The notes below the pieces were generated by a model, which saw nothing but the letters and a program-made list of their open reading frames with translations, did not search any database and was not told where the DNA came from. Positions 34,116 to 58,762 of a stretch of DNA of 64,000 bases are shown here, one piece after another. The first letter of the stretch is position 1. Each line of letters begins with the position of its first letter. Position numbers and translations under genes: made by a program. This DNA comes from an uncultured Chloroflexia bacterium (lineage in GTDB: Bacteria > Chloroflexota > Limnocylindria > Limnocylindrales > CSP1-4): positions 262,021 through 326,020 of the forward strand of contig CAVPPQ010000020.1 in the NCBI GenBank assembly GCA_963707395.1, given 5' to 3'.

Positions 34116-34132
34116 CCGACCGTCGCAGGGTC

Positions 34133-36910
34133 ATGACCAACCCCGCCGTCCGTGCCGAGCCGGCCGGGATCGGATCCTCGCGAGCCCGTGACCCACTCTC
34201 GCGTGAGGTCAAGCTGCTCGGCTCGCTGCTGGGCCAGGTCATCGCCGAGCAGGCCGGCGATGAGCTGCTGCACCTCGTCGAGCGGGTGCGGCGCCTGACG
34301 ATCGAGATCCGCAGCACGGGCGGCCTGAGCCGGCAGCGTTGCCTGCGTGACATCCTCGAGGGGCTGTCCGACGACCAGGTCGAGGACCTCGTCAAGGCCT
34401 TCAGCCTCTACTTCCACCTGACCAACCTGGCCGAGGAGAAGCAGCGTGTGCGACGCGTGCGCAAGCGCGCCCGGACGGTCAGCGCCGGTGGCCCGGACGG
34501 CTCCGTCCAGGAAGCCGTGCGCCGACTCCTGCGCGAGGACACGCCGCAGCGCACCCAGGCGCTCATCGGCGACCTCTCGGTCGGTCTCGTGCTCACGGCG
34601 CACCCCACGGAGGCGCGGCGACGCACGATGCTCGTGGCCCTGAGACGCGTCTTCGCCCTCCTCGACCGGCTCGACGACCAGCGCATCACCCCCGATGAGG
34701 ACGCCGAGATCCGCCGCCGGCTTCGCGAGGAGATCTCGCTGCTGTGGCGCACCTCCGCCCTGCGCATGGAGCGTCCGTCGCCGCTGGACGAGGTCCGCAA
34801 CGCACTCCTCTTCTTCGACGAATCGCTCTTCGTGGTCACACCGCGCCTCTATCGGGCGCTCGACCGAGCCTTGGACCGCGCACCGTGGATCGCAGACGAG
34901 CACGCCGGCGCGATCCGTGGCGCCGCTGCCACCGACAGCGGCCGCACGGGGACTCGCCCTCCGGCCACGCACGCCTTCCTGCGCTGGGGCTCCTGGGTCG
35001 GCTCTGACCGCGACGGACACCCGCGCGTGACGGCCGACACCACCCGCCAGGCGGCTGCCATCGGCGCCGACCATGTGCTGCGTGGATTGGAGGCCGTGAC
35101 CACGCGCCTCATGCACACGGTGGCTCCGACCCATCTCGACAGCGACCTCGAGCCGCACCTGGCCGCACGGCTGGAGCAGGACCGGCGCGACCTGGGGGCC
35201 GTCTACGAGGAGCTCACCCGCCACTTCCCCAACGAGCCCTATCGCCGCCGCCTGGGCTCCATGGCCGAGCGCCTGCGGCAGACTCGCCATCACCTCGTGG
35301 ACGGGCGCGGGCCAGGGGCGGGCTATGGCTCGCCCGCGGAGCTGCTCGTGGAGGTGGGGGAGCTGCAAGCGTCGCTCGTGACCGACCACATGGAGCGCGT
35401 CGCCTACGGGGAGGTCCAGGGCCTGCGCTGGCAGGTGGAGACCTTCGGCTTCCACGCCCTGTCTTTGGAGGTTCGTCAGCACAGCGAGGTCCACGCCGCG
35501 ACGCTCGCCGCGCTGGCCGCGGAGCAGGACCTGGAGGCCACCCAGGCGACCGACGGTGTGACCGCCGCCGAGGTGCTCGAGACGTTCCGTGCCATCGCGG
35601 ACATCCAGGCGCGCTTCGGCCCGGAGGCCTGCCAGCGCTATGTCATCAGCTTCACGCGCGGCCCGCAGGACGTCTTCGACGTGCTGGCCCTGGCGGATCG
35701 GGCCGGGCTCGCGCAGGCGACCTTCGACGTCGTGCCGCTCCTCGAATCGGCGGATGCGCTGGAAGGCGCCGAACACCTGCTCGACGCGCTCCTGACGAAC
35801 GCGGCCTATCGCGACCACGTCCGTCAACGCGGAGACCACCAGGAGGTCATGCTGGGCTACTCCGATTCCACGAAGGAGTCGGGCGCGCTCGCAGCCGCCT
35901 GGCTGCTCCACGGCGCCGAGTCGCAACTGGCCCGGGTCGCGGAGCGGCACGAGGTACGGCTGACGCTGTTCCACGGGCGTGGCGGAGCCATCGGTCGCGG
36001 CGGTGGGCCGATGAACCGCGCCATCCTGGCCAGCGCACCGCATTCGCTGGGCGGGCACATCAAGATCACCGAGCAGGGCGAGGTCGTGGCTGATCGCTAC
36101 GCCAACCGCGACATCGCGCTGCGGCACCTCGAGCAGCTCACCAACGCCGTGCTCATGGCCTCCTCCAGCGGCCACGAGCGCATGGTGCAGTCCGCGCGAC
36201 AGGGCGCCAACGCCATCATCGAGGAGCTCGCGCATCGGTCGGCGCGGGCGTACCGCTCGCTGGTCTGGGAGGACCCTGCCTTCGAGTCGTTCTACGCGGC
36301 GGCGACGCCCATCGCGGAGCTCTCTGAGCTGACCCTCGGCTCACGGCCGGCAGCGCGCGGGGGCGGGGGCATCTCGCTGCCGAAGCTGCGCGCCATCCCC
36401 TGGGTCTTCTCGTGGGCCCAGGCGCGGGCCTTCCTGCCGGCCTGGTACGGCCTGGGCACGGTCGTGGAGGCCTACGAGGCCGACCACGGTCCAGGCGCCA
36501 CCGGGCAGCTGCAGGCGCTCTACCGCGACATGCCCTTCTTCACGGGCGTCATCGACGTCGTGGAGATGGCCCTGGCCAAGGTGGACATGGCCGTGGCCGG
36601 CCTCTACGCCAGCCTGGCTGCCACGCCCGATGGGGAGCGCATCTGGGCCACCATCCGCACGGAGTACGAGCGTTCCGTCGCCGCCGTGCTGCGCATCACC
36701 GGGCGCACGAACCTGCTGGATGCCGCTCCGTCGTTGCAGCGCTCCATCCAGCTGCGCAACCCCTACGTCGACTCACTGTCGGAGATCCAGGTCATGCTCC
36801 TGGGTCGGCTGCGCGCCATGGGTCCGGACGACCCGGCCCGCCCGCGCCTGCGTCGACTCGTGCAGCTGACCGTGAGCGGTGTCGCCGCAGGGCTGCAGAA
36901 CACCGGGTAG
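34133..36910 (+). CDS. ppc: phosphoenolpyruvate carboxylase
   Basis: 925 aa; VLTAHPTEARRRT motif, ...FHGRGGAIGRGGGP..., C-terminal ...LQNTG; RBS-like upstream. Confidence 0.95.
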   Translation: MTNPAVRAEPAGIGSSRARDPLSREVKLLGSLLGQVIAEQAGDELLHLVERVRRLTIEIRSTGGLSRQRCLRDILEGLSDDQVEDLVKAFSLYFHLTNLAEEKQRVRRVRKRARTVSAGGPDGSVQEAVRRLLREDTPQRTQALIGDLSVGLVLTAHPTEARRRTMLVALRRVFALLDRLDDQRITPDEDAEIRRRLREEISLLWRTSALRMERPSPLDEVRNALLFFDESLFVVTPRLYRALDRALDRAPWIADEHAGAIRGAAATDSGRTGTRPPATHAFLRWGSWVGSDRDGHPRVTADTTRQAAAIGADHVLRGLEAVTTRLMHTVAPTHLDSDLEPHLAARLEQDRRDLGAVYEELTRHFPNEPYRRRLGSMAERLRQTRHHLVDGRGPGAGYGSPAELLVEVGELQASLVTDHMERVAYGEVQGLRWQVETFGFHALSLEVRQHSEVHAATLAALAAEQDLEATQATDGVTAAEVLETFRAIADIQARFGPEACQRYVISFTRGPQDVFDVLALADRAGLAQATFDVVPLLESADALEGAEHLLDALLTNAAYRDHVRQRGDHQEVMLGYSDSTKESGALAAAWLLHGAESQLARVAERHEVRLTLFHGRGGAIGRGGGPMNRAILASAPHSLGGHIKITEQGEVVADRYANRDIALRHLEQLTNAVLMASSSGHERMVQSARQGANAIIEELAHRSARAYRSLVWEDPAFESFYAAATPIAELSELTLGSRPAARGGGGISLPKLRAIPWVFSWAQARAFLPAWYGLGTVVEAYEADHGPGATGQLQALYRDMPFFTGVIDVVEMALAKVDMAVAGLYASLAATPDGERIWATIRTEYERSVAAVLRITGRTNLLDAAPSLQRSIQLRNPYVDSLSEIQVMLLGRLRAMGPDDPARPRLRRLVQLTVSGVAAGLQNTG

Positions 36911-37164
36911 TCGCCCACGGGGTCGCCCCGCGGCTTCAGTGCCAGATGTCCAGCGTCGCGAGCCTTCGCCACTCGACGCTTTGGAGCGGCACCCATGCCC
37001 CCGGATGACTCGATCATGCCCGTAGTCGACTCGCAGGCTGGGGGACGTCCCCCGGCTGACGCCCGGCCAGCTCTCTGCCGCCGCACCGGCACCCCGCCCG
37101 GCTCGACGACCTGCCGAACGGACCGCTCTAAGCTGACCTCCGCGACGGCCCGGGGAGCCCCCAG

Positions 37165-38415
37165 ATGGCTAGACTCGGCGGTGTGATCAGCCCGACCCTG
37201 AGCGGTCGTCTCCCGGTGGAGGAGCGACCCGCCTTCAACACCCACGTCCACCTGCCGCCCAACTTCTCGGCCTTCGAGACCGTCGAGGACGCCGTGGCCA
37301 CCGCGGCCCGCGAGGGCGCCCGCGTCATCGGCTCCTCCAACTTCCACGACTTCGGTGTCTACGACCGCTTCGCCGCCGCCGCGAAGGCGCACGGCGTAGC
37401 CGCCCTCTTCGGCCTGGAGTTCATCTCCGTCCTGGCGGAGGAGCAGCGCCGTGGCGTCAAGATCAACGACCCCGCCAACCCCGGCCGCGCCTACATCTGC
37501 GGCAAGGGCATCCCGGCACCCACCGCCCCCAGCGTCCAGACCCGCCAGTTCATGGACACCGCCAAGGCCTCCAACGAGGCGCGCACGCGCCAGATGGTGG
37601 ACGTCATCGGCAGCATCTTCAGGGCAGCCGGTCTGGCGCTCGAGGTCGGCTACGAATCGATCCTGGCGGACGTGGCCGCGCGCGCCCAGGTCCCGGAGGC
37701 GTGGGTCGTGCTGCAGGAGCGCCACGTGGCCCTGGGCTTCCAGCTGGGCCTCTTCGCGCAGGTCCCGGTCGAGCGCCGCGCCGCGCTGCTCGAGAAGGTC
37801 TACGGCAAGCCCCCCACGGCCTCCCCGGACGACGCCGTCGCGACCCAGGGCGAGCTGCGCTCCCGGCTCATGAAGGCCGGCTGCCCGGCCTTCGTGGAGG
37901 AGACGCCCATCCCCTTCACGGAGGGCCTCGCCTTCGTGCTCGGCCTGGACGCCATCCCGGTGTATCCCACGCTGGCTGATGGCGTCATCCCCATCTGCGG
38001 CTTCGAGGACCCGGTGGAGGATCTCATCGAGCGCATCCTGGGCTACGGCATCCACGGCGCGGAGCTCATCCCCATCCGCAACACGCCGGCGGTCGTTGAG
38101 CGCTACATCCGCGCCTGGCGCGACGCCGGCATCTTCGCCATGGTGGGCACGGAGCACAACACCCAGGAGCGCATCCCGGTCGGCCCCACCTGCCTGCAGG
38201 GCGTGCCGCTCTCCACGGAGGTCCTGGACATCTGCTGGGAGGGCACCTGCATCGTGGCCGCCCACCAGCACCTGCGCGCCGCGGGCGAGCCCGGCTACGT
38301 CGACCGCCAGGGCGCCCTGAACCCTGGCTTCCCGGATGGCGAGTCCCGCATCCGCTATTTCGCGCAGCTCGGCGAGCACGTGCTCGTCGAGGCCATCTCG
38401 GAGGCATCTCGATGA
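37165..38415 (+). CDS. PHP-domain-like (polymerase/histidinol-phosphatase fold) protein of unknown function
   Basis: 416 aa; NTHVHLPPNFSAFETVEDAVATAAREGARVIGSSNFHDFGVYDRFAAAAKAHGVAALFGLEFI fits the PHP HxH...DH...E metal-ligand pattern. Stop overlaps the start of the aldolase/SDR fusion gene (ATGA). Confidence 0.55.
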   Translation: MARLGGVISPTLSGRLPVEERPAFNTHVHLPPNFSAFETVEDAVATAAREGARVIGSSNFHDFGVYDRFAAAAKAHGVAALFGLEFISVLAEEQRRGVKINDPANPGRAYICGKGIPAPTAPSVQTRQFMDTAKASNEARTRQMVDVIGSIFRAAGLALEVGYESILADVAARAQVPEAWVVLQERHVALGFQLGLFAQVPVERRAALLEKVYGKPPTASPDDAVATQGELRSRLMKAGCPAFVEETPIPFTEGLAFVLGLDAIPVYPTLADGVIPICGFEDPVEDLIERILGYGIHGAELIPIRNTPAVVERYIRAWRDAGIFAMVGTEHNTQERIPVGPTCLQGVPLSTEVLDICWEGTCIVAAHQHLRAAGEPGYVDRQGALNPGFPDGESRIRYFAQLGEHVLVEAISEASR

Positions 38416-42269: not shown

Positions 42270-43757
42270 ATGACCGACCGACGGGGGCTCCGCTACGTGG
42301 CGCTCGACTTCGGGGCTGAAAGTGGCCGCACGATCGTGGGTCGCTTCGACGGGGACCAGCTCTCCATCGAGCCCGTGCATCGCTACCCCAACGTCCCGGT
42401 GCGCATGGGCGGCACGCTCTACTGGGACTTCCCCCGCCAGTTCGGGGACATCCTGGGTGGGCTGGAGCGGGCCGCCGTGGACGGGCCGGTGGCCTCGGTG
42501 GCGGTGGACACCTGGGGCGTCGACTACGGCTTCATCGACGCCAGGGGGCGCCTGCTGGGCAACCCCGTCCACTACCGCGACACGCGTCACGAGAAGATGC
42601 CGGAGGTCGCCTTCGGGATCGTCCCGCGGGAGGAGGTCTACGCGGCCACGGGCATCCAGTTCATGTCCATCAACACGCTCTTCCAGCTGCTCAGCGAGGT
42701 GCAGGCGGGCGATCCCCTCCTCGACCAGGCGGACCGGCTGCTGATGATGCCGGACCTCTTCAACCACTTCCTCTGCGGCAGCGACGTGGCCGAGTACACC
42801 GAGGCCACCACGAGCCAGTGCCTGGACCCCTGGACGCGCGACTGGGCCCGTCCGCTCCTCGATCGTCTCGGCATCCCTACCGGCTTCCTGCCGGAGGTCG
42901 TACCGCCGGGCACCATCCTCGGCGAGCTGCTGCCCGACGTCGCCGGGCAGGTCGGCCTCTCCGGCACGAAGGTCGTGGCCGCGGCGGCCCACGACACCGC
43001 CTCTGCCGTGGCCGGCACGCCGCTGGCGGGCCCATCGACCGCCTACATCTCGTCCGGCACCTGGTCGCTGGTAGGCCTGGAGGTGCCTGGGCCGGTGGTG
43101 GACGAGCGCGCCCTGGCCGCCAACGTCACCAACGAGGGCGGCTACGGCGGCACCATCACGCTGCTCAAGAACGTCATGGGCCTCTGGTTCGTGCAGCAGT
43201 GCCGCAGCGCACTCTGGGCACCAGACGCAAGGCCCTCCTACGAGGAGCTCTCCGCGATGGCGGCGAGCGGGCCCACCGGCACGGCCTTCGTGGACCCCAC
43301 GGACGGCCGCTTCCTATGGCCCGGTGACATGCCCGCCCGGGTTCGAGAGTTCTGCGCGGAGACCGGGCAGCCCGTGCCCCAGGACACGCCCACCCTGCTG
43401 CGGGTCATCCTCGAATCGCTGGCCCTGCGCTATGCCGTCGTCTTCGACGAGCTGGAGGCCGTCACCGGCCAGCCCATCGACCAGATCCACATCGTCGGTG
43501 GCGGTGTCCACAACACCCTGCTCTGCCAGCTGACCGCCGACGCCAGCGGCCGGCAGGTGGTGGCCGGGCCGGTGGAGGCCACGGCCATCGGCAACATCGC
43601 CACCCAGGCCATCGCGGCAGGAGAGCTGCGGGACATCGGCCAGGCGCGCGAGCTCATCGCGCGCTCGTTCCCGACCACGACCTACGATCCGTCGGGCGAC
43701 TGGTCGCAGGCGCGGGCACGGTATGCGGTCATGCAGGCGTCGCGCTCGCAGGCCTGA
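42270..43757 (+). CDS. rhaB: rhamnulokinase (FGGY family)
   Basis: YVALDFGAESGRTIVGRFDGDQLSIEPVHRYPNVPVRMGGTLYWDF...; C-terminal ...IHIVGGGVHNTLLCQLTADASGRQVVAGPVEATAIGN is the FGGY ATP-binding region. Confidence 0.8.
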   Translation: MTDRRGLRYVALDFGAESGRTIVGRFDGDQLSIEPVHRYPNVPVRMGGTLYWDFPRQFGDILGGLERAAVDGPVASVAVDTWGVDYGFIDARGRLLGNPVHYRDTRHEKMPEVAFGIVPREEVYAATGIQFMSINTLFQLLSEVQAGDPLLDQADRLLMMPDLFNHFLCGSDVAEYTEATTSQCLDPWTRDWARPLLDRLGIPTGFLPEVVPPGTILGELLPDVAGQVGLSGTKVVAAAAHDTASAVAGTPLAGPSTAYISSGTWSLVGLEVPGPVVDERALAANVTNEGGYGGTITLLKNVMGLWFVQQCRSALWAPDARPSYEELSAMAASGPTGTAFVDPTDGRFLWPGDMPARVREFCAETGQPVPQDTPTLLRVILESLALRYAVVFDELEAVTGQPIDQIHIVGGGVHNTLLCQLTADASGRQVVAGPVEATAIGNIATQAIAAGELRDIGQARELIARSFPTTTYDPSGDWSQARARYAVMQASRSQA

Positions 43758-43826: not shown

Positions 43827-44690
43827 ATGAACAAGATCGGGATCCATGCTCTGGTGTGGGCCGGCAGCTGGGGCGCCAAGGAGTGCGAGTACAGCGTCGC
43901 CAGCAGCAAGGAGGCGGGCTACGACCTGGTCGAGTTCCCCGTCTTCCAGCCGGCGGCCATGGACATCGAGGCCATCCAGCGGGCCCTCTCGGCCAACGGC
44001 ATGACGGCCACCTGCTCGATCGGCCTCTCGTTCGACAAGGACATCAACAGCGAGGACCCGGAGGTGGTGGCACGCGGTGAGGCGCTCCTCCACGACGCCC
44101 TCATGGCCGCCCGCGACCTGGGCTCGCCGTACCTCGGCGGTGTCATCTTCAGCGCTCTCGGGCCCTACTCATCCATGCCCACGGAGCGCAGCCGACGCAA
44201 CTCCATCGACGCCATCCGCCGTCTCGCGGAGAAGGCCGCGCCGCTGGACATCACCCTGGGCCTGGAGTTCGTGAATCGCTACGAATCCAACCTTCTCAAC
44301 ACGACCGCCCAGACGCTCGACTTCATCGAGGAGGTCGGCCTGCCCAACGTGGTCGTGCACGCCGACTCGTACCACATGAACATCGAGGAGAACGACTTCC
44401 GCTCGCCCATCGTGGCCGGTGGCGACAAGATCGGCTACGTCCACATCGGCGAGAACCACCGCGGCTACCTGGGCTCCGGGCACATCGACTTCCCGCAGCT
44501 CTTCGGGGCGCTCGTGGAGATCGGCTACGAGGGTGTCATCACCTTCGAGTCCTTCTCTTCGGCGGTCGTGGACGAGGATCTCTCCACCATCCTGCGCATC
44601 TGGCGCAACGTCTGGAGCGACGGCATGGATCTCGCCAAGCAGGCCCGCGGCTTCATCCGCGAGCAGATGGCGGCCGCCACACAGGGCTGA
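43827..44690 (+). CDS. xylose-isomerase-like TIM-barrel protein, ketose 3-epimerase (D-tagatose/D-psicose epimerase) family
   Basis: GIHALVWAGSWGAKECEYSVASSKEAGYDLVE... and LEFVNRYESNLLNTTAQTLDFIEEVGLPNVVVHADSYHMNIEE match the DTE/DPE family block for block (metal ligands E/D/H/E). Confidence 0.75.
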   Translation: MNKIGIHALVWAGSWGAKECEYSVASSKEAGYDLVEFPVFQPAAMDIEAIQRALSANGMTATCSIGLSFDKDINSEDPEVVARGEALLHDALMAARDLGSPYLGGVIFSALGPYSSMPTERSRRNSIDAIRRLAEKAAPLDITLGLEFVNRYESNLLNTTAQTLDFIEEVGLPNVVVHADSYHMNIEENDFRSPIVAGGDKIGYVHIGENHRGYLGSGHIDFPQLFGALVEIGYEGVITFESFSSAVVDEDLSTILRIWRNVWSDGMDLAKQARGFIREQMAAATQG

Positions 44691-44700
44691 CGGGCCGGGG

Positions 44701-46086
44701 TCAGCTGTTGGCCCCGACGCGCCATCGCTCCACGTAGCGAACCAAGCCGTCTCGATAGGCGCCCTCCGGTGACGGATGCGGGCTGTGGTCCAAGAGGGGC
44801 CGCGCACTATCGGCGGCCAGCAGCGCTGCGCCGATCGACGTGCCGGTAGCCGAGCCGACCGACGACATCACCGGCCTGCCACTCGCCGCGGCGACGAGAT
44901 CGAGGAACAGCGTGTTCCTGGCGAATGGCCCCTCGGTCAGGATCGGACCTTCAGCACCGGTCAGCTCGAGACACGTCAGGGCCATCATCGCCAGATAGAG
45001 CGAGGCGACTGCCGTCCGCTCACCATCGCTCAGCTCGAGTGCCGGCACCGACCAGGTGGATCGTCGCCCCTGGAACGGGCCGGACGTTGAGACGACGGCG
45101 GGGCTGAGCGTCACGCACTGGTCCAGGACGGCCGTGATATCAGCCCTGGTCGGGGTCACCGGCGCGCCGGAGGTGAGCATCTCGAACTCGCGGCCGCCCA
45201 TGAAGCGGGCCGATGGCACCGGGTCACCGAAGGCGTTCACGTTCATCAGCGTGTCTCGCGCCGGGTCGAGCGGCCGCGGCGTTCCGCCGATGGCCATGGT
45301 GATCACCCATGTCCCGGTCGAGATGACGGAGAACGGCGCGCTTCGCCCCATCAGGTGCGGGTAGAGCGAGGCGTTGCTGTCGTGGATGCCACAGGTGACC
45401 GGCGTGGACTGCGGCAGACCCGTTGCCTGTGCCACATCAGGCAAGAGGTTTCCGACGAGGTCCCACGCCTTGCGGATCGGCGGGAACCTGCCATCCAGGC
45501 CGAGCTTATCGACCAGGTCAGAGAAGTTGCGTTCTCGCGGCAGCCACAGGTCGGTGTGGCATCCCAACGATGCGACCTCCGTGCACCACGTGCCCGTGAG
45601 GCGGCCCACCCAGTACTGGGGATAGGTGACCACGTTGGCGATACGAGCGCGTAGCTCCGGACGGGTGCTGAGCAGCCAGTGCAGCTGCGCCCCCAGGTTG
45701 AAGCCGTGCGGCAGACGAGGGGACCCGCTCTTCGCGAAGCTGGGGCGAAGCGAGTCGTATTCGTCGGCCAGATCGTCTGGCCCGTCGTGCTCGTAGTCGA
45801 GCAGCGGAAGGACCGGCGTTCCCTCCTCATCAAGGAGCATCGCCGCCGCGCCGTGGGTCGTCGCGGTGATGGCGTCCACCCCGTGTCGGACCTGGAACCT
45901 GCTCAAGGCGTCGATGAGGAAGCGCCAGAGGGCCTCGGTGTCGTGATGCGGGAAGGGGTCATCGCGGAGAACGGCGTTCGGTGTCTCGCGCACGTCGATC
46001 TCGCGCAGATCCAGCAGGTCCACCAGGGCGACCTTCGCATGGGTCTTGCCGATGTCGATGACCGCCACGTTCCGGGCTCGGGTCAT
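44701..46086 (-). CDS. FGGY-family carbohydrate kinase (second kinase of locus)
   Basis: 461 aa; VAVIDIGKTHAKVALV..., ...GIHDSNASL...VISTGTWVI..., C-terminal ...GSATGTSIGAALLA. Confidence 0.75.
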   Translation of the reverse strand: MTRARNVAVIDIGKTHAKVALVDLLDLREIDVRETPNAVLRDDPFPHHDTEALWRFLIDALSRFQVRHGVDAITATTHGAAAMLLDEEGTPVLPLLDYEHDGPDDLADEYDSLRPSFAKSGSPRLPHGFNLGAQLHWLLSTRPELRARIANVVTYPQYWVGRLTGTWCTEVASLGCHTDLWLPRERNFSDLVDKLGLDGRFPPIRKAWDLVGNLLPDVAQATGLPQSTPVTCGIHDSNASLYPHLMGRSAPFSVISTGTWVITMAIGGTPRPLDPARDTLMNVNAFGDPVPSARFMGGREFEMLTSGAPVTPTRADITAVLDQCVTLSPAVVSTSGPFQGRRSTWSVPALELSDGERTAVASLYLAMMALTCLELTGAEGPILTEGPFARNTLFLDLVAAASGRPVMSSVGSATGTSIGAALLAADSARPLLDHSPHPSPEGAYRDGLVRYVERWRVGANS

Positions 46087-46116
46087 GGCCGATGGATCCT
46101 GGTCCGCGGGTCCGTC

Positions 46117-47127
46117 TCAGTCACCTTCGATCCGGAGGGTCTCGACCAGGGTCCGGATGTTCGCGATCGGGATGTCCGGCGGCAACCGGTGGGTTGGCCC
46201 GGCGATGTACCCACCGGACGCTCCCAGGAGCGCCACCGTGTCTTCGATCTTCTTCCGAAGCACCTCGGGCGGATCGAACGGCAGGTCGCGCTGCGTGCTG
46301 ATGCCACCCCAGAAGGTCAACCGATCCCCGAACTCGGCCTTCAGCCTCCTGAGGTCGTAGATCTCCGGCTGGACCGTCTGATAGATGTCCAGGCCGATGT
46401 CGATGAACTCCGGCAGGAGGTCGGTGATGTTGCCGCAGGAGTGCAGCGCGACGATCTTGCCCCTCGACTTGACCCGCGAGAACATCGTGGCCCAGCCTTC
46501 CTTGAAGAACGTGCGCCACATCCGCGGGCTCATCAGCAACCCGTTCTGCTGACCGTAGTCGTCGCCGAAGTAGAAGCCGTCGATCCCGGAGTCGATGACC
46601 GAGTCGATGATCTTCAGGTTGTAGCTGAGCACCTTGGCGAGGATCTCCTTCACGAAGTCCTCGTCTGCCGCCAGGTACATGAGCATGTTCTGGAACCCAC
46701 ACAGGCTCCACGCTCGCTCGAAGTAGGTCGTGCCGATCTTCCCGAACAGCACCGCGTCACCACGAGTGGCGAGAGCGCGATCGACCGACCGCACCATCTC
46801 GTCCAGGTCGGGCTCCGGGAAGACGTACGAGTCGTCGTGGGGGCTCACGAGCTCGGCGGTCGGGATGCCGATGTCCTTGTCATCCCCGGTGCGGTCCCAC
46901 TCCACCCCGAACTCGTCCGTGAAGTAGCCCTCGCGTTCCGACCTGCCGCCGATGTTGAAGCCCACCTTCTGGCAGTGGTTGCCCAGGTACGCCTCGAACT
47001 CCGCAGGGTCCATCGCGTAGGCAGCGCAGGTCTTCGCCAGCTGAGCGCTGGTGAACTCGATGGCGTAGGGAACCCGATCCGGCTGGCTGTGCCCGATCGC
47101 TGTCAGCGTGCGCTCTCGTCGTGACAT
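46117..47127 (-). CDS. uroporphyrinogen-decarboxylase (URO-D/MtaA-like) family protein
   Basis: MSRRERTLTAIGHSQPDRVPYAIEFTSAQLAKT... and ...IVALHSCGNITDLLPEFIDIGLDIY... resemble the URO-D/methyltransferase MtaA family fold. Confidence 0.65.
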   Translation of the reverse strand: MSRRERTLTAIGHSQPDRVPYAIEFTSAQLAKTCAAYAMDPAEFEAYLGNHCQKVGFNIGGRSEREGYFTDEFGVEWDRTGDDKDIGIPTAELVSPHDDSYVFPEPDLDEMVRSVDRALATRGDAVLFGKIGTTYFERAWSLCGFQNMLMYLAADEDFVKEILAKVLSYNLKIIDSVIDSGIDGFYFGDDYGQQNGLLMSPRMWRTFFKEGWATMFSRVKSRGKIVALHSCGNITDLLPEFIDIGLDIYQTVQPEIYDLRRLKAEFGDRLTFWGGISTQRDLPFDPPEVLRKKIEDTVALLGASGGYIAGPTHRLPPDIPIANIRTLVETLRIEGD

Positions 47128-47304
47128 GGGACTCCTTGCGATGCGCGCAGCCTGGCCGGATCCCGGCCCAGGCTCAAGAAGGGGTTCTGCCGCCGTCGCC
47201 GAGCGATGCGCCATGAACGAAGAAGCCGGGGCGCCACGTGGGCACCCCGGCGCTGGTGGCTCGGTCAGGCCCGGTCCTGGATGGACCGAGCATGGACCCC
47301 CAGA

Positions 47305-48423
47305 CTAGAAGTCGAAGTCGTTGATGTTGTCAGGGCCGTAGATGAAGGGTGGGCCAAGCAGCACTTCGCTGCCGTTCACGACCTGGAGGTCGCCGAGGCG
47401 GCCCGCCGCGACACTGGTGTCACCGGGCTTGAAGGTGCCATCCACGACGGCACGCATGACGTAGGTGGCGGCATAGCCGAGGTCCACCGGGTTCCACAGC
47501 ACGACCGACTTGACGCAACCGTCCTGGACGTACGGCTTCATCGCGTTGGGGGTGGCCAGGCCGATGACCGAGACCTTGCCGCAGGCCTCTGCCTGGGTCA
47601 CGGCATCAGCGGCGGCCGGGGTGGCCACGCTGGTCATGCCGAAGATGCCCTGGATGCCATCGCCGTACTTGTTGAGGAGCGTCTGGGCCTGGCTGAAGGA
47701 CAGCGGGCCGTCCTCCTGGGCCTCAAGCGTCTCCAGCCACTTCAGGTTGGGGTAGCACTTCATGGCATAGGCTTCCATCTCGGCGATCCAGCGCGCCTGG
47801 TTCGGCGTGGTGAACGTGCTGGTCACGATGCCGAAGGCAGCGGAGTCGCCCTGCTCGGCGACGAGGCTGTCGATCATGGCCTTGCCGATGCCGTTGAACT
47901 CGGCCTGGTTGACGAACCACTCGCGTGCCTCAGGCACGGAGTTGGCGTCGTAGCCGACGACATGGATGCCGGCCTCAAGGGCCTTGGTCAGGACCGGGCC
48001 GATGGCCACCGGATCGTTGGCGGCGAAGAGGACGCCGTCCACACCCTGGGTGATGTAGTTGTCGATGAAGGTGATCTGCTCATCGATGTTGGCGTTCGTG
48101 GGACCGTCGTTGATGACTTCCACGTTGCCTAGCTCAGCAGCAGCTTCCTGCATGCCCTTGGCGGTGGCATTGAAGTAGCCGATGCCGATGAGCTTGGGGA
48201 TGTCGACGACGGTGATCGGCTGGCCGGCCTTGTCAGGCGGGTTGACAGCCATGCCACCGTTGAAGTCCATGGCCGCCGGCGCGGGCGCCGCCTCGTCAGG
48301 CGTGCACGGCAGCGGGTTGGTCGGCAGGTCGTCGCCGCCGGCCCAGCGGTCCTGGGCTGCGACGCTGGCGAACGAGCCGAACGTCAGGCCGATGACCGCG
48401 GTCAGGGTGATGATCTTGCGCAT
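47305..48423 (-). CDS. sugar ABC transporter substrate-binding protein (RbsB/RhaS-like periplasmic binding protein)
   Basis: Signal peptide MRKIITLTAVIGLTFGSFASVAA; ...ITVVDIPKLIGIGYFNATAKGMQEAAAELG... is a type I PBP fold; RBS GGAG upstream of the 48423 start. Confidence 0.85.
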   Translation of the reverse strand: MRKIITLTAVIGLTFGSFASVAAQDRWAGGDDLPTNPLPCTPDEAAPAPAAMDFNGGMAVNPPDKAGQPITVVDIPKLIGIGYFNATAKGMQEAAAELGNVEVINDGPTNANIDEQITFIDNYITQGVDGVLFAANDPVAIGPVLTKALEAGIHVVGYDANSVPEAREWFVNQAEFNGIGKAMIDSLVAEQGDSAAFGIVTSTFTTPNQARWIAEMEAYAMKCYPNLKWLETLEAQEDGPLSFSQAQTLLNKYGDGIQGIFGMTSVATPAAADAVTQAEACGKVSVIGLATPNAMKPYVQDGCVKSVVLWNPVDLGYAATYVMRAVVDGTFKPGDTSVAAGRLGDLQVVNGSEVLLGPPFIYGPDNINDFDF

Positions 48424-48536
48424 CTTGACAGTCCATCTCCTCATGTGGTCGAACTGGACATTGCGTGCCGGTCCAACGGGGACCGACGGATCCGATGGGA
48501 CTCCCGAGTCACCTCCTCTCGACGGGCATGGTAGCC

Positions 48537-49568
48537 CTAGCGTGCTCCGGGGAGAAGCCGTTTCAGCCTCGCCGGCGGGTTCTGGATGAACTGGTTGAGG
48601 AGCACGGCGCCGATGAGGATGACACCCACGACGATGGTCGTCGAGTCACCCTTGGCGCCGGACAGCGCCAAGCCGTTCTTCATGAGCTGGATGAGCGCCA
48701 GGCCCAGCACGGTGCCCAGGATCGTGCCGCTGCCGCCGAAGATGCTGGTGCCACCCACGACCACGGCGGTGATGGCAGTGAGCTCGATGCCGTTGCCGAA
48801 GTCCGAGCGGGTGGTGCTCACGCGCGAGACGTAGACCCACGCCGCCACACCGGACATGAACCCGGACAGCGTGTAGATGATGAGCTTGTTGCGCTGCACG
48901 GGAAGGCCGCTGAAGCGCGCCCCCGTCTCGTTGTTGCCGATGGCGTACAGGGAGCGGCCAAAGGGCGTCCAGGCCAGGGCGGCGCCGATGGCGATGACCG
49001 CCAGGACCACGATGAGGAGCTGGTTCGGGATGCTCGTCAGGTCGCCCAGGAAGTCCTTCTGGCCCAGGATGTAGAACCACTCCGGGTAGCCGCGCACGGA
49101 TCGCGCCTGCGCGATGCCCTCCGCGAGTCCGCGGAAGAGCGCCAGCGTGGCCAGGGTGGTGATGAGCGGCGGCAGGCCGACCCTCGTGATGAAGAGGCCG
49201 TTGAAGAGGCCGCAGGCGGTGCCGATGAGCAGGGCCACGACGATGGCCAGCTCGAGGGGCAGGCCCCAGTTGTACCAGGCCACCCCGAGCATGATGGACG
49301 CCAGCCCCATGATGGAGCCGACGGACAGGTCGATGCCGCCCGTGATGATGATGAGCGTCATGGGCAGGGCGATGAGCGCGACCTCGCCTGCCAGGCGACT
49401 CTGATTGAGAAGGTTCTCCGGGGTCAGGAAGACGTCCGACTGCAGCGAGAGCAGCAGTACGCCGGCGACCAGGAGGATGAAGAGGATCGATTCCTGGCGC
49501 AGCAGGATGCGCTGCAGGCGGCTGGGCTCTGAGGAGCTGGGCTGGGTAGCGGGGTTCACGGTCGTCAT
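48537..49568 (-). CDS. sugar ABC transporter permease (RbsC/AraH family)
   Basis: Polytopic membrane protein; ...LSVGSIMGLASIMLGV..., typical branched-chain/ribose-type permease. Confidence 0.8.
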   Translation of the reverse strand: MTTVNPATQPSSSEPSRLQRILLRQESILFILLVAGVLLLSLQSDVFLTPENLLNQSRLAGEVALIALPMTLIIITGGIDLSVGSIMGLASIMLGVAWYNWGLPLELAIVVALLIGTACGLFNGLFITRVGLPPLITTLATLALFRGLAEGIAQARSVRGYPEWFYILGQKDFLGDLTSIPNQLLIVVLAVIAIGAALAWTPFGRSLYAIGNNETGARFSGLPVQRNKLIIYTLSGFMSGVAAWVYVSRVSTTRSDFGNGIELTAITAVVVGGTSIFGGSGTILGTVLGLALIQLMKNGLALSGAKGDSTTIVVGVILIGAVLLNQFIQNPPARLKRLLPGAR

Positions 49569-49578
49569 CTCGGCCTGC

Positions 49579-50610
49579 CTACTGCCGTTCCTGGCGCCGG
49601 CGGCGCACGACATCGGAGAGCACGGTCACCAGGATCAGGATGCCCAGGATGGCCTTCACCCAGAAGGGCGAGATGTTCACGAAGACCAGCGCCGAGCCGA
49701 TGAAGCGGATGAGGATGGCCGCCAACGTGGAGCCGATGACCGTGCCCACGCCGCCCAGGATGGAGACACCGCCCACCACGGAGGCCGTGATGACCTGCAG
49801 TTCCAGGCCCGGGGTCACGACCGCCTGGATGGTCTGGAACTGCGTCGCGTACATGACGCTGGCGATGCCCGCGAAGACGCCGCTCAGGATGAACGTGGTC
49901 ATCAGGATGCGCCGCGTGTCCAGGCCGGAGAGACGGGCTGCCTCCGCGTTGCCACCGACCGCGTATTGGGAGCGGCCGGTCCGGCTGTAGCGCATCCACA
50001 GGAAGGCCACGGCAGTCAGGACGATCATGATCCAGACCGGGATCGGGATGCCCAGGAAGGACTCCATGGCGAAGCTGTAGCCCTCGGGCAAGTCGTAGAG
50101 CGTGTTGCCTCCCGCTACGAGGATGAGGCCACCCTTGAGGATGCTGAACATGCCCAGCGTGACGACGATGGCAGGGATCTTCAGGTAGGCCACGAAGAAG
50201 CCGTTGATGGCGCCGATGAGCATGCCGCCGAAGATGGGTACGATCCAGGCCGCCACGTTCACGAGGGGCAGCGGCAAGCCCGCGTCGCGCAAGCCGAGCG
50301 CCACGTAGCCGGAGAGCGTCACCAGCACGCCGATGGCGGCGCCCACGGAGATGTCGATGTTGCCGGTGATGATGATCATCGACATGCCGATGGCGGCCAC
50401 GGCGATGTAGGCGTTGACGTTGAAGAGGTCGCTGACGTTGTTCCAGGCCAGGAACTGGTTGTTGTACAGCCCCACGCCGAAGAAGAGACCCACCAGCAGG
50501 ATGAGCAGCAGGCCCTCCTGGGTGCCCAGCGCCCGACGGACGAAGCCCAGGAGCTGGCGGCCCTGGGACGTGCGTTGCGAGGTGGGCTGGGCTGGAGCTG
50601 CCGCGCTCAT
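49579..50610 (-). CDS. sugar ABC transporter permease (RbsC/AraH family), second
   Basis: 343 aa paralog of the upstream permease; overlaps neighbours by 4 nt (operon). Confidence 0.8.
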   Translation of the reverse strand: MSAAAPAQPTSQRTSQGRQLLGFVRRALGTQEGLLLILLVGLFFGVGLYNNQFLAWNNVSDLFNVNAYIAVAAIGMSMIIITGNIDISVGAAIGVLVTLSGYVALGLRDAGLPLPLVNVAAWIVPIFGGMLIGAINGFFVAYLKIPAIVVTLGMFSILKGGLILVAGGNTLYDLPEGYSFAMESFLGIPIPVWIMIVLTAVAFLWMRYSRTGRSQYAVGGNAEAARLSGLDTRRILMTTFILSGVFAGIASVMYATQFQTIQAVVTPGLELQVITASVVGGVSILGGVGTVIGSTLAAILIRFIGSALVFVNISPFWVKAILGILILVTVLSDVVRRRRQERQ

Positions 50611-52157
50611 GCGGCCGCTCCGGCCACCGGATCCGCAGGCGGCGTGTCCGGGAGGATGACCTGGTCGCTCATCATGGCCGCACCGACGTTGTGCTGGTCG
50701 GCGTCCGCCCGATCGAACTCCGCCACCAGGCGACCCTGGCGCATGACCAGGACGCGGTCGCTCATGCCCAGCACCTCCGGCAGCTCGCTGGAGATCATGA
50801 GGATGCCCAGGCCCTGCTGGGCCAGCTCGCTCATGAGCCGGTGGATCTCCGCCTTGGCACCCACGTCAACGCCGCGGGTGGGCTCGTCCACGATGAGCAG
50901 CTTGGGCTTGCTGGCCAGCCACTTGCCCACGACGACCTTCTGCTGGTTGCCGCCGGAGAGCTTGTTGACGACCTGCTCCCCGCTCGTGGCGATGATGTTG
51001 AGCTGGGCGATCATGTCGTTCCCGACGCGGCGCTCGGCGGACTTGTCCACCATGCCCACGCGGGTCAGCGAGCCCAGGATGGCCATCGAGATGTTCTCGC
51101 GGATGCGCATCTCCCTGACCAGCCCCTGGCTGCCGCGATCCTCTGGCACGTAGGCGATGCCCAGCTTCATGGCCTGACCCGGTGAGCGGATGTCCACCTT
51201 CTGGCCCTCGATGAGGATCTCGCCCGAGTCGGGGGCCAGGATGCCGAAGACGAGCTGCGCCGTCTCGCTGCGACCGGAGCCCACGAGGCCCGCCATGCCC
51301 ACGATCTCGCCACCGCGGACCGTGAAGCTGACGTCCTGCGTGGTCGGCTTGCGCGTCAGGTTGCGGACCTCCAGCACGTCACCGCGGACCTCCGTGGGGA
51401 GCTTGGGGAAGAGCTCCGTGATGGTCCGACCGACCATCATGCGGATGAGCTCGCCCTCGCTCACCTCAGCCACGGGCTTCGAGCCGACGAAGTGCCCGTC
51501 GCGCAGGACGGTGACCCGATCGGCCAGCTGGAAGACCTCCTGCAGGCGGTGGCTGATGTAGATGACGGCCACGCCGCGCTCCTTGAGCAGGCGCACGATC
51601 TCGAAGAGGCGCTCGACGTCCGATTCGGTGAGCGCGGCCGTAGGCTCGTCCATGATGAGCACTCGGGCGTTGATGGAGAGGGCCTTGGCGATCTCGACGC
51701 GCTGACGGTTGCCCACGTTCAACGTGCCGACCTTGCGCTGGACGTCCATGTCCTGGATGTTGAGCGAGGCCAGGATCTCGCGGGCGCGGTCGTTCATGGC
51801 ACCCCAGTCCACGACGCCGATGCGGCCGACCTCGCGCCGGGGGGCATGGCCCATGAAGATGTTCTCCGCCACGGACAGCTCCGGGTAGAGGCTCAGCTCC
51901 TGGTACATCGTGGCCACGCCAGCCGCCTGTGCCTCATGCGGGCTGCCGAAGGCGACTTCCTGGCCCTCCATGCGAATGACGCCCGCGTCCGGTTGGTGGA
52001 CGCCGGAGATGACCTTGATGAGCGTGGACTTGCCGGCACCGTTCTCACCCACCAGGGCATGGATCTCGCCAGCCGCCACCGTGAATGAGACGTCCTCCAG
52101 GGCGCGGACACCCGGGAACTGCTTGCTGATGCCCTCGAGTTCAAGCAGCGCGGTCAT
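50607..52157 (-). CDS. sugar ABC transporter ATP-binding protein (duplicated NBD, RbsA/RhaT-like)
   Basis: 516 aa; two Walker A motifs (GENGAGKST... and GLVGSGRSE), LSGGNQQKV signature. Confidence 0.9.
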   Translation of the reverse strand: MTALLELEGISKQFPGVRALEDVSFTVAAGEIHALVGENGAGKSTLIKVISGVHQPDAGVIRMEGQEVAFGSPHEAQAAGVATMYQELSLYPELSVAENIFMGHAPRREVGRIGVVDWGAMNDRAREILASLNIQDMDVQRKVGTLNVGNRQRVEIAKALSINARVLIMDEPTAALTESDVERLFEIVRLLKERGVAVIYISHRLQEVFQLADRVTVLRDGHFVGSKPVAEVSEGELIRMMVGRTITELFPKLPTEVRGDVLEVRNLTRKPTTQDVSFTVRGGEIVGMAGLVGSGRSETAQLVFGILAPDSGEILIEGQKVDIRSPGQAMKLGIAYVPEDRGSQGLVREMRIRENISMAILGSLTRVGMVDKSAERRVGNDMIAQLNIIATSGEQVVNKLSGGNQQKVVVGKWLASKPKLLIVDEPTRGVDVGAKAEIHRLMSELAQQGLGILMISSELPEVLGMSDRVLVMRQGRLVAEFDRADADQHNVGAAMMSDQVILPDTPPADPVAGAAA

Positions 52158-52398: not shown

Positions 52399-52837
52399 CT
52401 CCGGGCGGACAGGCGCGACCGACGGGGACCATCGACCGGGCCAGCGGCGCTCCCGCCCTCCGAGCCTGGATGGGGTCCCTGGGTGGCCTGCGCGTCTCGC
52501 CCAGTCATTCGCCGGAGGATAGCCGAGCGCCGGACCGCGCGAGAGGGGGTCAGGCGGCCCGAGCTGGCGGGTCGCACGCTCCCAACCTCGCCCCTGGGCG
52601 ATGCCCCAAACCGTGACCCGGTGGAGCGATGTGGCGCTACCGAGGCCCGGGGGACGCCTTCCGCGTCCCGCTGGATGCCGATGCCGGCCACGATGACTGC
52701 CTCGGCGCCTGATGGACGAGACGCGCCGCGACGTGTCAGGGTCGCGGAGGCTATCCTGCGCTGCGAACGGAGAGCGGTCCTCGGCTCGTCGAACGGACGA
52801 CGGGGCCGACCGTCTCGCCTGCCGCCCGGAGGAGCCC

Positions 52838-53800
52838 ATGCCTGAGACCGACGAGCGCCGCCTGGCCTGGTATCGGCGGATGCTGCTGATCAGGGTCTTC
52901 GAGGACAAGGTGCAGCAGCTCTTCATGGGCGGTCGTATCGAGGGCACGACGCACCTCTGCCAAGGCCAGGAGGCGGTCTCCGTGGGAGCCATCGCGGCCA
53001 TGGGCCCGCATGACGTGCAGACGAACACGTACCGCGGCCACGGCGAGGCCCTGGCCCTGGGCATGACCCCCGACGTCGCCATGGCCGAGCTGATGGGCCG
53101 CAGCAGCGGCGGCTCGAAAGGCCTGGGTGGCTCGATGCACCTCATCGACACGGCCAAGGGCAACATCGGCGCCAATGCCATCGTCGGCGCCGGCCTGCCC
53201 ATCGCCGTGGGGGCCGCCATGGCTTTCAAGCTGCGACGGGAGCCGCGCGTGGCGCTCACCTTCGTGGGTGACGGTGCCACCAACATCGGCACCTTCCACG
53301 AGTCGCTGAACATGGCCGCGGTGTGGCAAGCACCGGTCGTCTTCGTCGTCGTCAACAACCTCTACGGCGAGTACTCACCGGTGCGCATGACAACGCCCAT
53401 CGACGACCTGGCGCGGCGTGCCGACCCGTACGCCATGCCCGGCGTCATCGTCGACGGCCAGGACGTGGAGGCCGTCCATGCCGCCGCGTCCGAGGCGGTC
53501 GCCCGAGCCCGCGCGGGGGATGGTCCCAGCCTGCTGGAGATGAAGACCTACCGCTACCGGGGGCATTCGCGCTCGGACCCGGCCAAGTACCGACCTGGTG
53601 GGGAGCTCGAGGCCTGGAAGGCGCGCGACCCGCTCGTGATCCTGGGGACGCGGCTGGCGAACGAGGGCCTGCTGTCGCCCGCAGCCCAGGCGGCGCTGGA
53701 GTCGGACGTCACGGCCGAGGTCGAGGCCGCTGTCGCGCGTGCCGAGTCCGCACCCTACCTGTCCATCGAGGAGGCCCGTCGCCATGTCTACGCTGGCTGA
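52838..53800 (+). CDS. TPP-dependent 2-oxoacid dehydrogenase E1 alpha subunit (pyruvate/acetoin dehydrogenase-like)
   Basis: ...YRGHGEALALG...GDGATNIGTFHESLNMAAVW...YRYRGHSRSDP; RBS GGAGG. Confidence 0.85.
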   Translation: MPETDERRLAWYRRMLLIRVFEDKVQQLFMGGRIEGTTHLCQGQEAVSVGAIAAMGPHDVQTNTYRGHGEALALGMTPDVAMAELMGRSSGGSKGLGGSMHLIDTAKGNIGANAIVGAGLPIAVGAAMAFKLRREPRVALTFVGDGATNIGTFHESLNMAAVWQAPVVFVVVNNLYGEYSPVRMTTPIDDLARRADPYAMPGVIVDGQDVEAVHAAASEAVARARAGDGPSLLEMKTYRYRGHSRSDPAKYRPGGELEAWKARDPLVILGTRLANEGLLSPAAQAALESDVTAEVEAAVARAESAPYLSIEEARRHVYAG

Positions 53801-57419: not shown

Positions 57420-57422
57420 TCC

Positions 57423-58487: not shown

Positions 58488-58762
58488 GACCGTGTTGCCG
58501 GCACGACCTTTGGCCGGCTCGACCCTGCGGCCGGCTCGACGCGAGTATGGAGGAACGCCGCGCGCGCTCCGCGGCGGGACAGTGGACTGCCCGGGCCGGC
58601 CGTGTTCGTGTCAACGGCGTGGAGCCGCGCGTGCGACCGCTGCCGTAGCCACGACGTCCCGACCAGGGGACCCCGCACGGGCGGTGGAGTCATCCGCCGC
58701 CCAGCCACGCCGTTTTGACTGACAGTCATGGCCCGCGCGTGGGCTCCGCCCGTGCGGCCTGG

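Follow-up and report, generated by a model that had tools for sequence, protein, structure and literature searches.

What does a protein of the PHP superfamily do at the head of an operon for sugar-phosphate cleavage? The question is raised by a 64,000-nucleotide stretch of DNA (hereafter the window) from an uncultured Chloroflexia bacterium (contig CAVPPQ010000020.1), in which the open reading frame (ORF) at 37165..38415 of the + strand is the first gene of a + strand operon and encodes a PHP-like protein that we abbreviate PHPl. An earlier note on this DNA had credited the product with the ligands of trinuclear-metal PHP phosphoesterases and its gene with translational coupling to that of a RhaEW-like fusion of an aldolase and a dehydrogenase. 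We show here that PHPl is a cytoplasmic enzyme of ~400 residues from an uncharacterised family, and that its gene opens a conserved, translationally coupled module in which it is followed by the gene for a short-chain dehydrogenase/reductase (SDR), with or without a class II aldolase domain, and then by that for a long zinc-dependent medium-chain dehydrogenase/reductase (MDR). The module points to an undescribed step in the breakdown of deoxy sugars.

The PHPl ORF is a real gene, as is evident from 1177 homologues at E<=1e-3 in a database search (all of them unnamed or "hypothetical protein"), an exhaustive hidden Markov model search that yields 612 clusters (50% identity), a confident AlphaFold2 (AF2) model, the independent call of an identical 416-residue gene on the source contig in the ENA metagenome assembly, and a recurrent four-nucleotide overlap with the downstream gene. 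The ATG start, TGA stop, strand and length are as the earlier note had given them, and the peptide strings that it quoted (HVHLPPNFSAF, VIGSSNFHDF, GLEFI and GTEHNTQERIPVGPTCLQGVPL) are all present in the translation, the first ~20 residues of which are unconserved and form a low-confidence part of the model. An antisense ORF at 36763..38379, longer than the PHPl ORF itself, was rejected as a by-product of high G+C. A scan of 185,579 species genomes located 540 genome stretches encoding PHPl relatives, the nearest of which, in Chloroflexota metagenome-assembled genomes (MAGs), are 92-93% identical. NCBIfam holds no match to PHPl, a tblastn search of plasmids gave none, and we found no literature on the family and no family model or database name that covers it.

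The homology of PHPl to PHP proteins is established by the combination of structural and family-level matches. The AF2 model, built on 35 homologues, has a predicted local distance difference test score (pLDDT) of 91.4 and a predicted template modelling (TM) score of 0.90, and its top Foldseek matches are the COG0613 PHP structures 3e0f/3o0f (Bifidobacterium BAD_1165), 9etk (Vibrio RNase AM) and 2yb1 (Chromobacterium Cv1693), with probability 1.00, E ~1e-9 and target TM scores of 0.71-0.74. The PHP domains of replicative polymerases (Pol III and PolC, 4jom among them) rank next, and structures of L-histidinol phosphate phosphatase reach only E ~1. PHPl alone matches Pfam PHP (PF02811) over residues 27-87 only, at E 0.0085 and 16.9 bits, which is below the gathering score of 26.4, and neither phmmer with PHPl nor the family profile found a PHP chain in the PDB at E<=10. 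However, 51 of 62 diverse family members match PF02811 at E<=0.1, the best of them at 3.2e-10. The PHP fold claimed in the earlier note is thus recovered, with sequence support that is solid only at the level of the family.

In the model, seven strands alternate with helices, strand 4 spanning residues 108-114 and strands 5-7 residues 264-269, 298-301 and 324-327, and between strands 4 and 5 lies an all-helical segment of ~140 residues (124-260). The predicted fold is accordingly a PHP (beta/alpha)7 barrel of the COG0613 type, with a helical lid after strand 4. A helical insertion between these two strands characterises COG0613, and the whole chain matches 2yb1 and 3o0f with target TM scores of 0.72-0.74. 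The long, supposedly motif-free C-terminal extension of the earlier note consists in the model of this lid, inserted within the barrel, and of strands 5-7 after it, and the same region does contain a motif, GTEHN, which is a degenerate counterpart of the PHP motif GSDxH. A phmmer match of residues 98-150 (window positions 37456-37614, over NDPANPGRAYICGKGIP) to cytochrome c'' (PDB 1e8e; E 5e-4) was rejected as a chance resemblance, because with the family profile the match weakens to an E value of 1.2.

Whether the metal centre of PHPl is that of a PHP phosphoesterase is a separate matter. Escherichia coli RNase AM binds three Mn ions, with an alpha site composed of His13, (His15), Glu72 and Asp255, a beta site of Glu72, His83 and His198, and a gamma site of Asp20, His45 and His257; Arg201 holds a sulfate that mimics the scissile phosphate, and lid residues Arg107, Arg110 and Arg141 form the pocket for the distal 5'-phosphate (PMC9410882). 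We aligned 62 PHPl-family sequences with RNase AM by hhalign, and the local and global alignments have an identical register that agrees with the strand order in the AF2 model, although the ligand map is tentative in that the hhalign probability is only ~15% (range across alignments 0.5-16%). A first, shallow PHPl alignment gave nothing against RNase AM and a more diverse one was needed, and a database search with the E. coli protein, intended for a COG0613 profile, returned near-identical E. coli sequences only. On the tentative map, H13, H15 and E72 of RNase AM correspond to H27, H29 and E85 of PHPl, and the alpha-site D255 to E330. The beta-site histidines H83 and H198 are matched by Y110 and by D272, with an invariant Y267 five residues before the latter, and at the gamma site D20 falls on F34 (between N33 and S35), H45 on F60 and H257 on N332, with R201 aligned to I275, a variable position. 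In the lid, where the alignment is of low confidence, R110 corresponds to R140 (R in 46 of 62 sequences), R107 to a variable position, and R141-G-H143 to E185-R186-H187, such that R141 is matched by E185 with R186 adjacent and H143 by H187.

Conservation was counted over 99 family sequences, down to 24% identity. The retained positions H27 (96 of 99), H29 (94), E85 (95) and E330 (92) are matched in conservation by Y110 (94), Y267 (97), D272 (88), H331 (95) and N332 (93), and K114, E300, R305, N306, R186, H187, R232, K237, H367 and Q368 are each conserved in at least 90; E185 in the lid is also among the conserved residues. Altogether the barrel mouth and the lid contain ~30 polar residues that are at least 90% conserved. 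The Asp-x-His of PHP motif IV is absent, its place being taken by G-T-E330-H331-N332, with all three of the numbered residues at least 92% conserved. The N-terminal His/Asp/Glu ligands on which the earlier note relied are present in part: the HxH pair and the bridging Glu are there, whereas the motif-I Asp is missing and H61 is not conserved across the family (Y in 43, H in 36, F in 7 and N in 7 of 99). Its trinuclear ligand set did not hold up, given that on the tentative map only H13, H15 and E72 of the nine RNase AM ligands are kept and D255 is replaced by Glu. We infer that the alpha-metal site alone has stayed intact (H27, H29, E85 and E330), that the beta site has been rebuilt with the conserved Tyr110 and Asp272, together with Tyr267, and that the gamma site and the scissile-phosphate Arg have been lost, while part of the COG0613 lid pocket for the distal 5'-phosphate appears to be kept in R140 and R186/H187. 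As aligned, the site would differ both from the classical trinuclear PHP site and from a decayed one, since the replacement residues are as conserved as the retained ligands.

A more distant paralogue offers a further view of these residues. It is encoded at 20175-21245 of locus L086, where a 457-residue ORF follows the dehydrogenase ADH345 and ends at the contig edge. It keeps the HxH, the Glu, PG..Y.C, ERH, LDG, RN and GTE.N, and it lacks Y267 and H331, which narrows the core catalytic set.

The comparison with COG0613 enzymes (E. coli RNase AM, YciV/TrpH, 7ug9; the Vibrio cholerae enzyme 9etk; Cv1693, the Chromobacterium violaceum 3',5'-nucleotide bisphosphate phosphatase, 2yb1; and BAD_1165, 3e0f/3o0f) is one of shared architecture and divergent detail. 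PHPl has the distorted (beta/alpha)7 barrel with its helical insertion, the HxH, the bridging Glu and an acidic residue in motif IV, and the lid-pocket Arg and Arg/His appear to be kept. However, identity is about 11-16% with no match at the HMMER or BLAST level, the lid is ~40 residues longer, the beta-site His residues would be replaced by Tyr110 and Asp272 and the gamma-site Asp/His/His by Phe, Phe(/His) and Asn, and the Arg201 equivalent would be lost, whereas K114, E300, R305, N306, H331 and H367 are new conserved residues. The genomic context is sugar catabolism rather than RNA or sulfur metabolism. Because it lacks the sequence and ligand features that define COG0613, PHPl is not a COG0613 member but a separate uncharacterised family within the PHP superfamily. 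With that superfamily at large (PF02811: L-histidinol phosphate phosphatase, YcdX, CpsB, and the PHP domains of Pol X and Pol III alpha) it shares the fold and the N-terminal motifs, but it lies under the Pfam cut-off and does not keep the trinuclear ligand set.

The genomic context of PHPl was surveyed in the best 80 of the 540 stretches, with neighbours counted over 55 loci of at least 18 kb and overlaps over 73 loci. All 80 are from MAGs, and they belong to Chloroflexota, Planctomycetota/Phycisphaerae, Armatimonadota (Chthonomonadaceae), Fibrobacteria, Acidobacteriota, Acidimicrobiia and Propionibacteriales. The start of the downstream gene overlaps the PHPl stop by four nucleotides in 52 of 73 loci, as it does in the window, where the TGA (38413-38415) overlaps the ATG (38412-38414) of a 693-residue class II aldolase-SDR, and the translational coupling proposed in the earlier note is thereby borne out. 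Its expected co-occurrence with sugar genes is equally clear, with the long MDR present in 50 of the 55 loci, the aldolase-SDR in 46 and a RhaB-like kinase in 34. DeoR regulators occur in 42, ATP-binding cassette (ABC) importer components in 30-38, a second MDR of about 344 residues (ADH344) in 26-29, RhaI in 20, RhaM in 17, a fused thiamine-dependent E1 in 15 and a separate RhaD-like aldolase in 14, and unbiased clustering of the remaining ORFs of the 55 loci yielded no further partner in more than 15. The regulators are of the DeoR type, the kinases FGGY ketose kinases and the importers CUT2 ABC systems, and in many genomes the loci hold rhamnose genes (RhaM, RhaI/RhaA, RhaB, RhaD) or fucose genes (FucI, FucU). 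The association recurs in Chloroflexota, Planctomycetota, Armatimonadota, Fibrobacteria, Acidobacteriota and Actinomycetota, and orthologues almost always lie beside sugar genes. The earlier note had staked its reading on this association and on a recoverable PHP fold, and both were found.

Individual loci illustrate how the module is embedded. In L082 a complete rhamnose operon (DeoR, ABC importer, RhaM, RhaB, RhaI and RhaD) runs directly into PHPl, aldolase-SDR, long MDR and ADH344. L083 is of the fucose type, with a kinase, FucU, LacI, FucI, an importer, an aldo-keto reductase, ADH344, PHPl and the long MDR, followed by SorC, E2, E3 and a fused E1. L086 has AraC, PHPl, aldolase-SDR, a kinase and RhaA, and then the distant paralogue, again placed after an MDR dehydrogenase; two genes resembling uroporphyrinogen decarboxylase (URO-D) adjoin the PHPl gene there (4189-6381). 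In L088 a fused E1 and DeoR face PHPl; after it come an SDR that lacks the aldolase domain and most resembles sorbitol-6-phosphate dehydrogenase, then the long MDR and a sugar-phosphate isomerase of the KpsF/GutQ type. PHPl also occurs as one part of naturally fused proteins, in which its partner is a class II aldolase in P0159, an SDR in P0239 and, in P0122, a domain most like mannitol-1-phosphate 5-dehydrogenase (MtlD), which scores 105 bits against an NCBIfam cut-off of 356.

These observations suggest a reaction, although we advance it tentatively. In the reading we favour, PHPl is a mono- or binuclear metal-dependent enzyme of the hydrolase type, acting on a phosphorylated intermediate derived from a 6-deoxy-ketose at the carbon that its partners oxidise; the caution attaches to the type of reaction, the family, fold and module being firm. 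PHPl would hold the phosphorylated 6-deoxy-ketose, or a polyol or keto intermediate derived from it, by its phosphate, the partner dehydrogenases dependent on nicotinamide adenine dinucleotide (NAD) would oxidise a carbon centre of the substrate, and water activated by one or two metals would then act on the oxidised carbon with the phosphate left in place, a logic of dehydrogenase followed by hydrolase. A phosphorylated substrate is favoured because all of the neighbours and fusion partners act on sugar phosphates, because the lid phosphate pocket appears partly kept, and because of the DeoR regulators, which typically sense sugar phosphates; the SDR closest to sorbitol-6-phosphate dehydrogenase makes it likely as well. 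The near-constant presence of the long MDR, the MDR beside the paralogue, and the SDR and MtlD-like fusions suggest that PHPl acts directly before or after an NAD-dependent oxidation.

The most substantial rival is a classical phosphoesterase acting on a sugar, polyol or bisphosphate ester, for example a polyol-phosphate phosphatase that follows a dehydrogenase, as in bifunctional MtlD, or an enzyme that relieves sugar-phosphate stress. We consider it possible although on balance unlikely. Several considerations lend it weight and count against the carbon-centred hydrolysis proposed above. The prior favours phosphate ester hydrolysis, as all characterised PHP-fold enzymes are, to our knowledge, phosphoesterases. 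The closest folds to PHPl are pAp phosphatase and RNase AM, the alpha site is predicted to be intact, many Arg and Lys residues are conserved, and the neighbours all handle phosphorylated sugars. The ligand map that departs from the phosphoesterases comes from a low-probability profile alignment, and, as in purple acid phosphatases, Tyr, Asp and Asn ligands at a binuclear site could still allow phosphate ester hydrolysis. In addition, the MtlD-like fusion P0122 resembles the known bifunctional mannitol-1-phosphate dehydrogenase/phosphatases modelled by NCBIfam NF046057, the likeness being one of a dehydrogenase joined to a hydrolase, although the phosphatase domain of the latter has another fold, that of the haloacid dehalogenase (HAD) family. 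Nonetheless, a plain phosphatase is disfavoured, both because the replacements would affect just those ligands, and the Arg, with which the closest structural relatives act on the scissile phosphate (five of nine canonical ligands as well as the Arg201 equivalent, the replacements being themselves conserved), and because it would undo the pathway, opposing the kinase encoded in the same operon and destroying the phosphate that the following aldolase, which depends on dihydroxyacetone phosphate (DHAP), requires. We also note that the PHP domain of E. coli Pol III, which has a degenerate ligand set, is inactive. The earlier note had left the choice between a phosphatase and a "metal-dependent hydrolase or isomerase of a new type", and the second of these fits the data at least as well as the first, since the beta and gamma ligands and Arg201 appear not to be kept.

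The inactive polymerase domain also provides the precedent for regarding PHPl as a non-catalytic, degenerate PHP subunit that serves as a scaffold or regulator of the aldolase-SDR and MDR, comparable to that of DNA polymerase III alpha. Translational coupling and natural fusions do suggest physical association, and canonical ligands have been lost, but the strict conservation of polar residues at the barrel mouth and lid, including the HxH, E85, E330, H331 and N332, is the pattern of an active site and not of a scaffold, and makes this very improbable. In another reading PHPl is a non-hydrolytic enzyme, namely an isomerase, epimerase or lyase whose substrate is a phosphorylated deoxy-ketose; a single metal would polarise the carbonyl, with Tyr, Asp and Lys residues serving as acid and base. 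This would account for the two exchanges of His for Tyr and Asp, for the conserved K114, R305, D272, Y110 and Y267 around an alpha-only site, and for the pairing or fusion with dehydrogenases that would use the ketose or polyol product. It is doubtful, however, in that we know of no PHP-fold isomerase; uronate isomerase, of the related amidohydrolase superfamily, is an analogy from a different fold subgroup, and no uronate isomerase structure is among the Foldseek matches of PHPl. The simplest version, in which PHPl is the missing aldose-ketose isomerase, was rejected, because PHPl shares operons with RhaI (L082), FucI (L083) and RhaA (L086). Nor is a lactonase acting with an aldose 1-dehydrogenase favoured, as the module is accompanied by neither a sugar-acid dehydratase nor a keto-deoxy aldolase. 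Lastly, the nearest solved structures might be taken to mean that PHPl is a nucleotide or RNA phosphoesterase, of the pAp phosphatase or RNase AM kind, that stands beside sugar genes by chance, but there is no sequence-level match to those structures, their ligand set is not kept, and the sugar neighbourhood is conserved across the groups listed above, from Chloroflexota to Actinomycetota, so that the probability of this is close to negligible.

Within our favoured reading of PHPl as a hydrolase acting on an oxidised carbon, one specific route can be formulated, although the available evidence does not single it out and we regard it as improbable in this exact form. The module would be a phosphorylative counterpart, free of lactaldehyde, of the diketo-hydrolase branch of rhamnose and fucose catabolism. 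A partner dehydrogenase would oxidise C4 of L-rhamnulose-1-phosphate or L-fuculose-1-phosphate, and PHPl would grip the 1-phosphate and hydrolyse the resulting 2,4-diketone to DHAP and L-lactate; in a variant, PHPl would prepare an acyloin for the co-located thiamine-dependent E1. Pairs of a dehydrogenase and a diketone hydrolase are familiar from non-phosphorylative routes, namely LRA5/LRA6 for L-rhamnose, the L-fucose counterpart, and IolM/IolN of Thermotoga for inositol. They share with the module the logic of a Zn-MDR or SDR dehydrogenase coupled to a hydrolase, and IolM is among the best, though weak, NCBIfam matches of the long MDR and ADH344, with the TIM-barrel gene of the window matching IolO. 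The likeness is an analogy only, however, as no sequence relationship of PHPl to LRA6/IolN-type hydrolases was found (no NCBIfam hit), and the substrates here would be phosphorylated.

The distribution of E1 may bear on how carbon-carbon cleavage is achieved. A fused E1 is present in six of the seven loci without any class II aldolase homologue, the seventh being an incomplete locus, and in 12 of the 52 loci with an aldolase (Fisher's exact p = 0.002, uncorrected for relatedness). This hints that some lineages may use another type of C-C cleavage in place of the aldol step, and it is compatible with a route by which the module bypasses free lactaldehyde. In Fibrobacteria and in L087 and L088 the order is E1, DeoR and then the divergent PHPl gene. 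L083 has no aldolase or SDR between its cluster boundaries, and a further 1.8 kb of upstream sequence holds the remainder of the kinase gene together with one divergent ORF, again with no aldolase. In L083 taken together with L092 (Ga0335074_10000101), the divergent upstream ORF is read, from sequence alone, as a PadR-like regulator, and SorC bounds the downstream side. The fused E1 proteins outside the window are of ~820 residues (L083, L087, L088, L069, L072, L049 and L067).

The partner enzymes of the window also depart from described systems. RhaEW is the bifunctional L-rhamnulose-1-phosphate aldolase/L-lactaldehyde dehydrogenase, and the account of the C. aurantiacus pathway in Rodionova et al. 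(2013, PMC3870299) comprises RhaA, RhaB and RhaEW, with no PHP-like or long-MDR gene mentioned in that account. The window aldolase-SDR has the same two-domain architecture and TIGR02632 as its best NCBIfam match, and many related loci are complete rhamnose operons; however, it scores 308.9 bits against the TIGR02632 cut-off of 567.75 and does not reach the threshold of any of the 11 NCBIfam models for bifunctional aldolase/SDR proteins, and in some related loci a separate RhaD is present as well or the aldolase domain is absent. The window aldolase-SDR probably represents a subfamily of its own, one that co-evolves with the PHPl gene. The long MDR carries an insert of ~170 residues (about 190-355) between its catalytic and GAAGPMG Rossmann domains, with weak similarity to a second cofactor-binding domain (25% over 103 residues, E 0.12), and no NCBIfam model comes near its cut-off for this protein. 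The motifs conserved over 56-58 homologues are the catalytic Cys, a His-Glu pair and the GAAGPMG nucleotide loop in the MDR, PSVE, HTH and NHG in the aldolase, and TGAAQGFG, NSKSG and YAGSK in the SDR; judged by these motifs, the partners appear to be active enzymes.

Rhamnose and fucose are major sugars of plant and microbial cell walls and their catabolism is considered well mapped, and a three-gene module without an assigned role inside rhamnose and fucose operons, mostly of uncultured soil and freshwater bacteria from at least seven phyla, represents a genuine gap in the pathway. Half of the metal ligands of PHPl appear to have been exchanged for other conserved residues on a hydrolase scaffold, which is how new chemistry arose in related superfamilies, and the protein offers a test of how far the PHP fold can depart from phosphoester hydrolysis. 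Its reaction, once solved, would fill an annotation gap in the carbon cycling of Chloroflexota, Planctomycetota, Armatimonadota and others, would give names to more than 1000 "hypothetical proteins", and may reveal a way to process deoxy-sugar phosphates without release of toxic lactaldehyde. Should the diketone or acyloin route be correct, PHPl would be the first non-phosphoesterase enzyme of the PHP fold and part of a new catabolic route for deoxy sugars.

Table. Positions within the window of the PHPl gene, its sequence elements and the neighbouring genes (residue numbers are those of PHPl; aa, amino acids; nt, nucleotides)
Feature	Position	Strand	Basis or remark
Intergenic region upstream of operon	36911..37164	.	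254 nt
PHPl coding sequence	37165..38415	+	ATG-to-TGA ORF, 416 aa; homologues; AF2 pLDDT 91.4
Motif I His27-x-His29, predicted alpha-metal ligands, end of strand 1	37243..37251	+	96/99 and 94/99; map to RNase AM H13/H15
S58-N-F-H61-D62, counterpart of PHP motif II (TDHD)	37336..37350	+	gamma-site His position is F60; H61 unconserved
Glu85, predicted bridging carboxylate, strand 3	37417..37419	+	E in 95/99; maps to RNase AM E72
Family signature NDPANPGRAYICGKG	37465..37509	+	Tyr110 in place of beta-site His83; Lys114 conserved
Helical lid (insertion domain, about residues 120-260)	37522..37944	+	AF2 secondary structure; architecture as in COG0613 structures; carries R140, E185-R186-H187, R232, K237
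Strand 5 and following loop, IPVYPTLADG	37954..37983	+	Tyr267 97/99; Asp272 88/99, aligned with beta-site His198
Strand 6 segment E300-L-I-P-I-R305-N306	38062..38082	+	conserved Glu/Arg/Asn
GTEHNT, degenerate motif IV (GSDxH)	38146..38163	+	Glu330 for alpha-site Asp, Asn332 for gamma-site His; His331 conserved
His367-Gln368, C-terminal helix	38263..38268	+	H 93/99, Q 92/99
ATGA stop/start overlap, PHPl/aldolase-SDR	38412..38415	+	4-nt overlap likewise in 52/73 loci
Class II aldolase + SDR fusion, RhaEW-like, 693 aa	38412..40493	+	catalytic motifs intact; domain scans
Long Zn-dependent MDR dehydrogenase, 592 aa	40490..42268	+	start overlaps aldolase-SDR stop; tightest PHPl partner
Rhamnulokinase-like FGGY kinase, 495 aa by gene call	42270..43757	+	family scans
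Xylose-isomerase-like TIM-barrel protein resembling ketose 3-epimerases	43827..44690	+	last gene of + strand operon
Convergent gene set	44701..52157	-	second FGGY kinase, URO-D-like protein, sugar-binding protein, two permeases, ABC ATPase (CUT2-type importer)
E1 alpha and E1 beta, thiamine-diphosphate 2-oxoacid/acetoin-type dehydrogenase	52712..54797	+	split here; a fused form accompanies PHPl modules of other phyla

Rfam, promoter and terminator scans of the upstream region and operon gave nothing, with neither a riboswitch nor a sigma-70 consensus in 36911..37164. Immediately upstream of the operon, at 33264-36910 (+), are genes for an enoyl-acyl carrier protein reductase-like SDR and a phosphoenolpyruvate carboxylase. 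The carboxylase was rejected as a module member, because it is present in only 14 of the 55 loci, all of them from the closest Chloroflexota relatives, and the order of these two upstream genes reflects synteny within the lineage.

On the other side, the second FGGY kinase (44701-46086, -), which has an FGGY_C_2 C-terminal domain and is convergent with the operon, is found in just one of the 55 related loci and is thus specific to the cluster of the window lineage. Between this kinase and the sugar-binding protein lies the URO-D-like gene (uroporphyrinogen decarboxylase/methyltransferase-like; 46117-47214, -), within the sugar cluster. Further downstream, an 815-residue ORF at 56282-58729 (-) that might be taken for an aldolase-MDR fusion was rejected as such, its first ~460 residues being an R/S/P/W-rich out-of-frame translation. 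The real gene within it, for a glucose-dehydrogenase-like MDR, begins near 57328 (MKAIAIRPG...), and 57978-58481 encodes, in another frame, an SDR-like segment.

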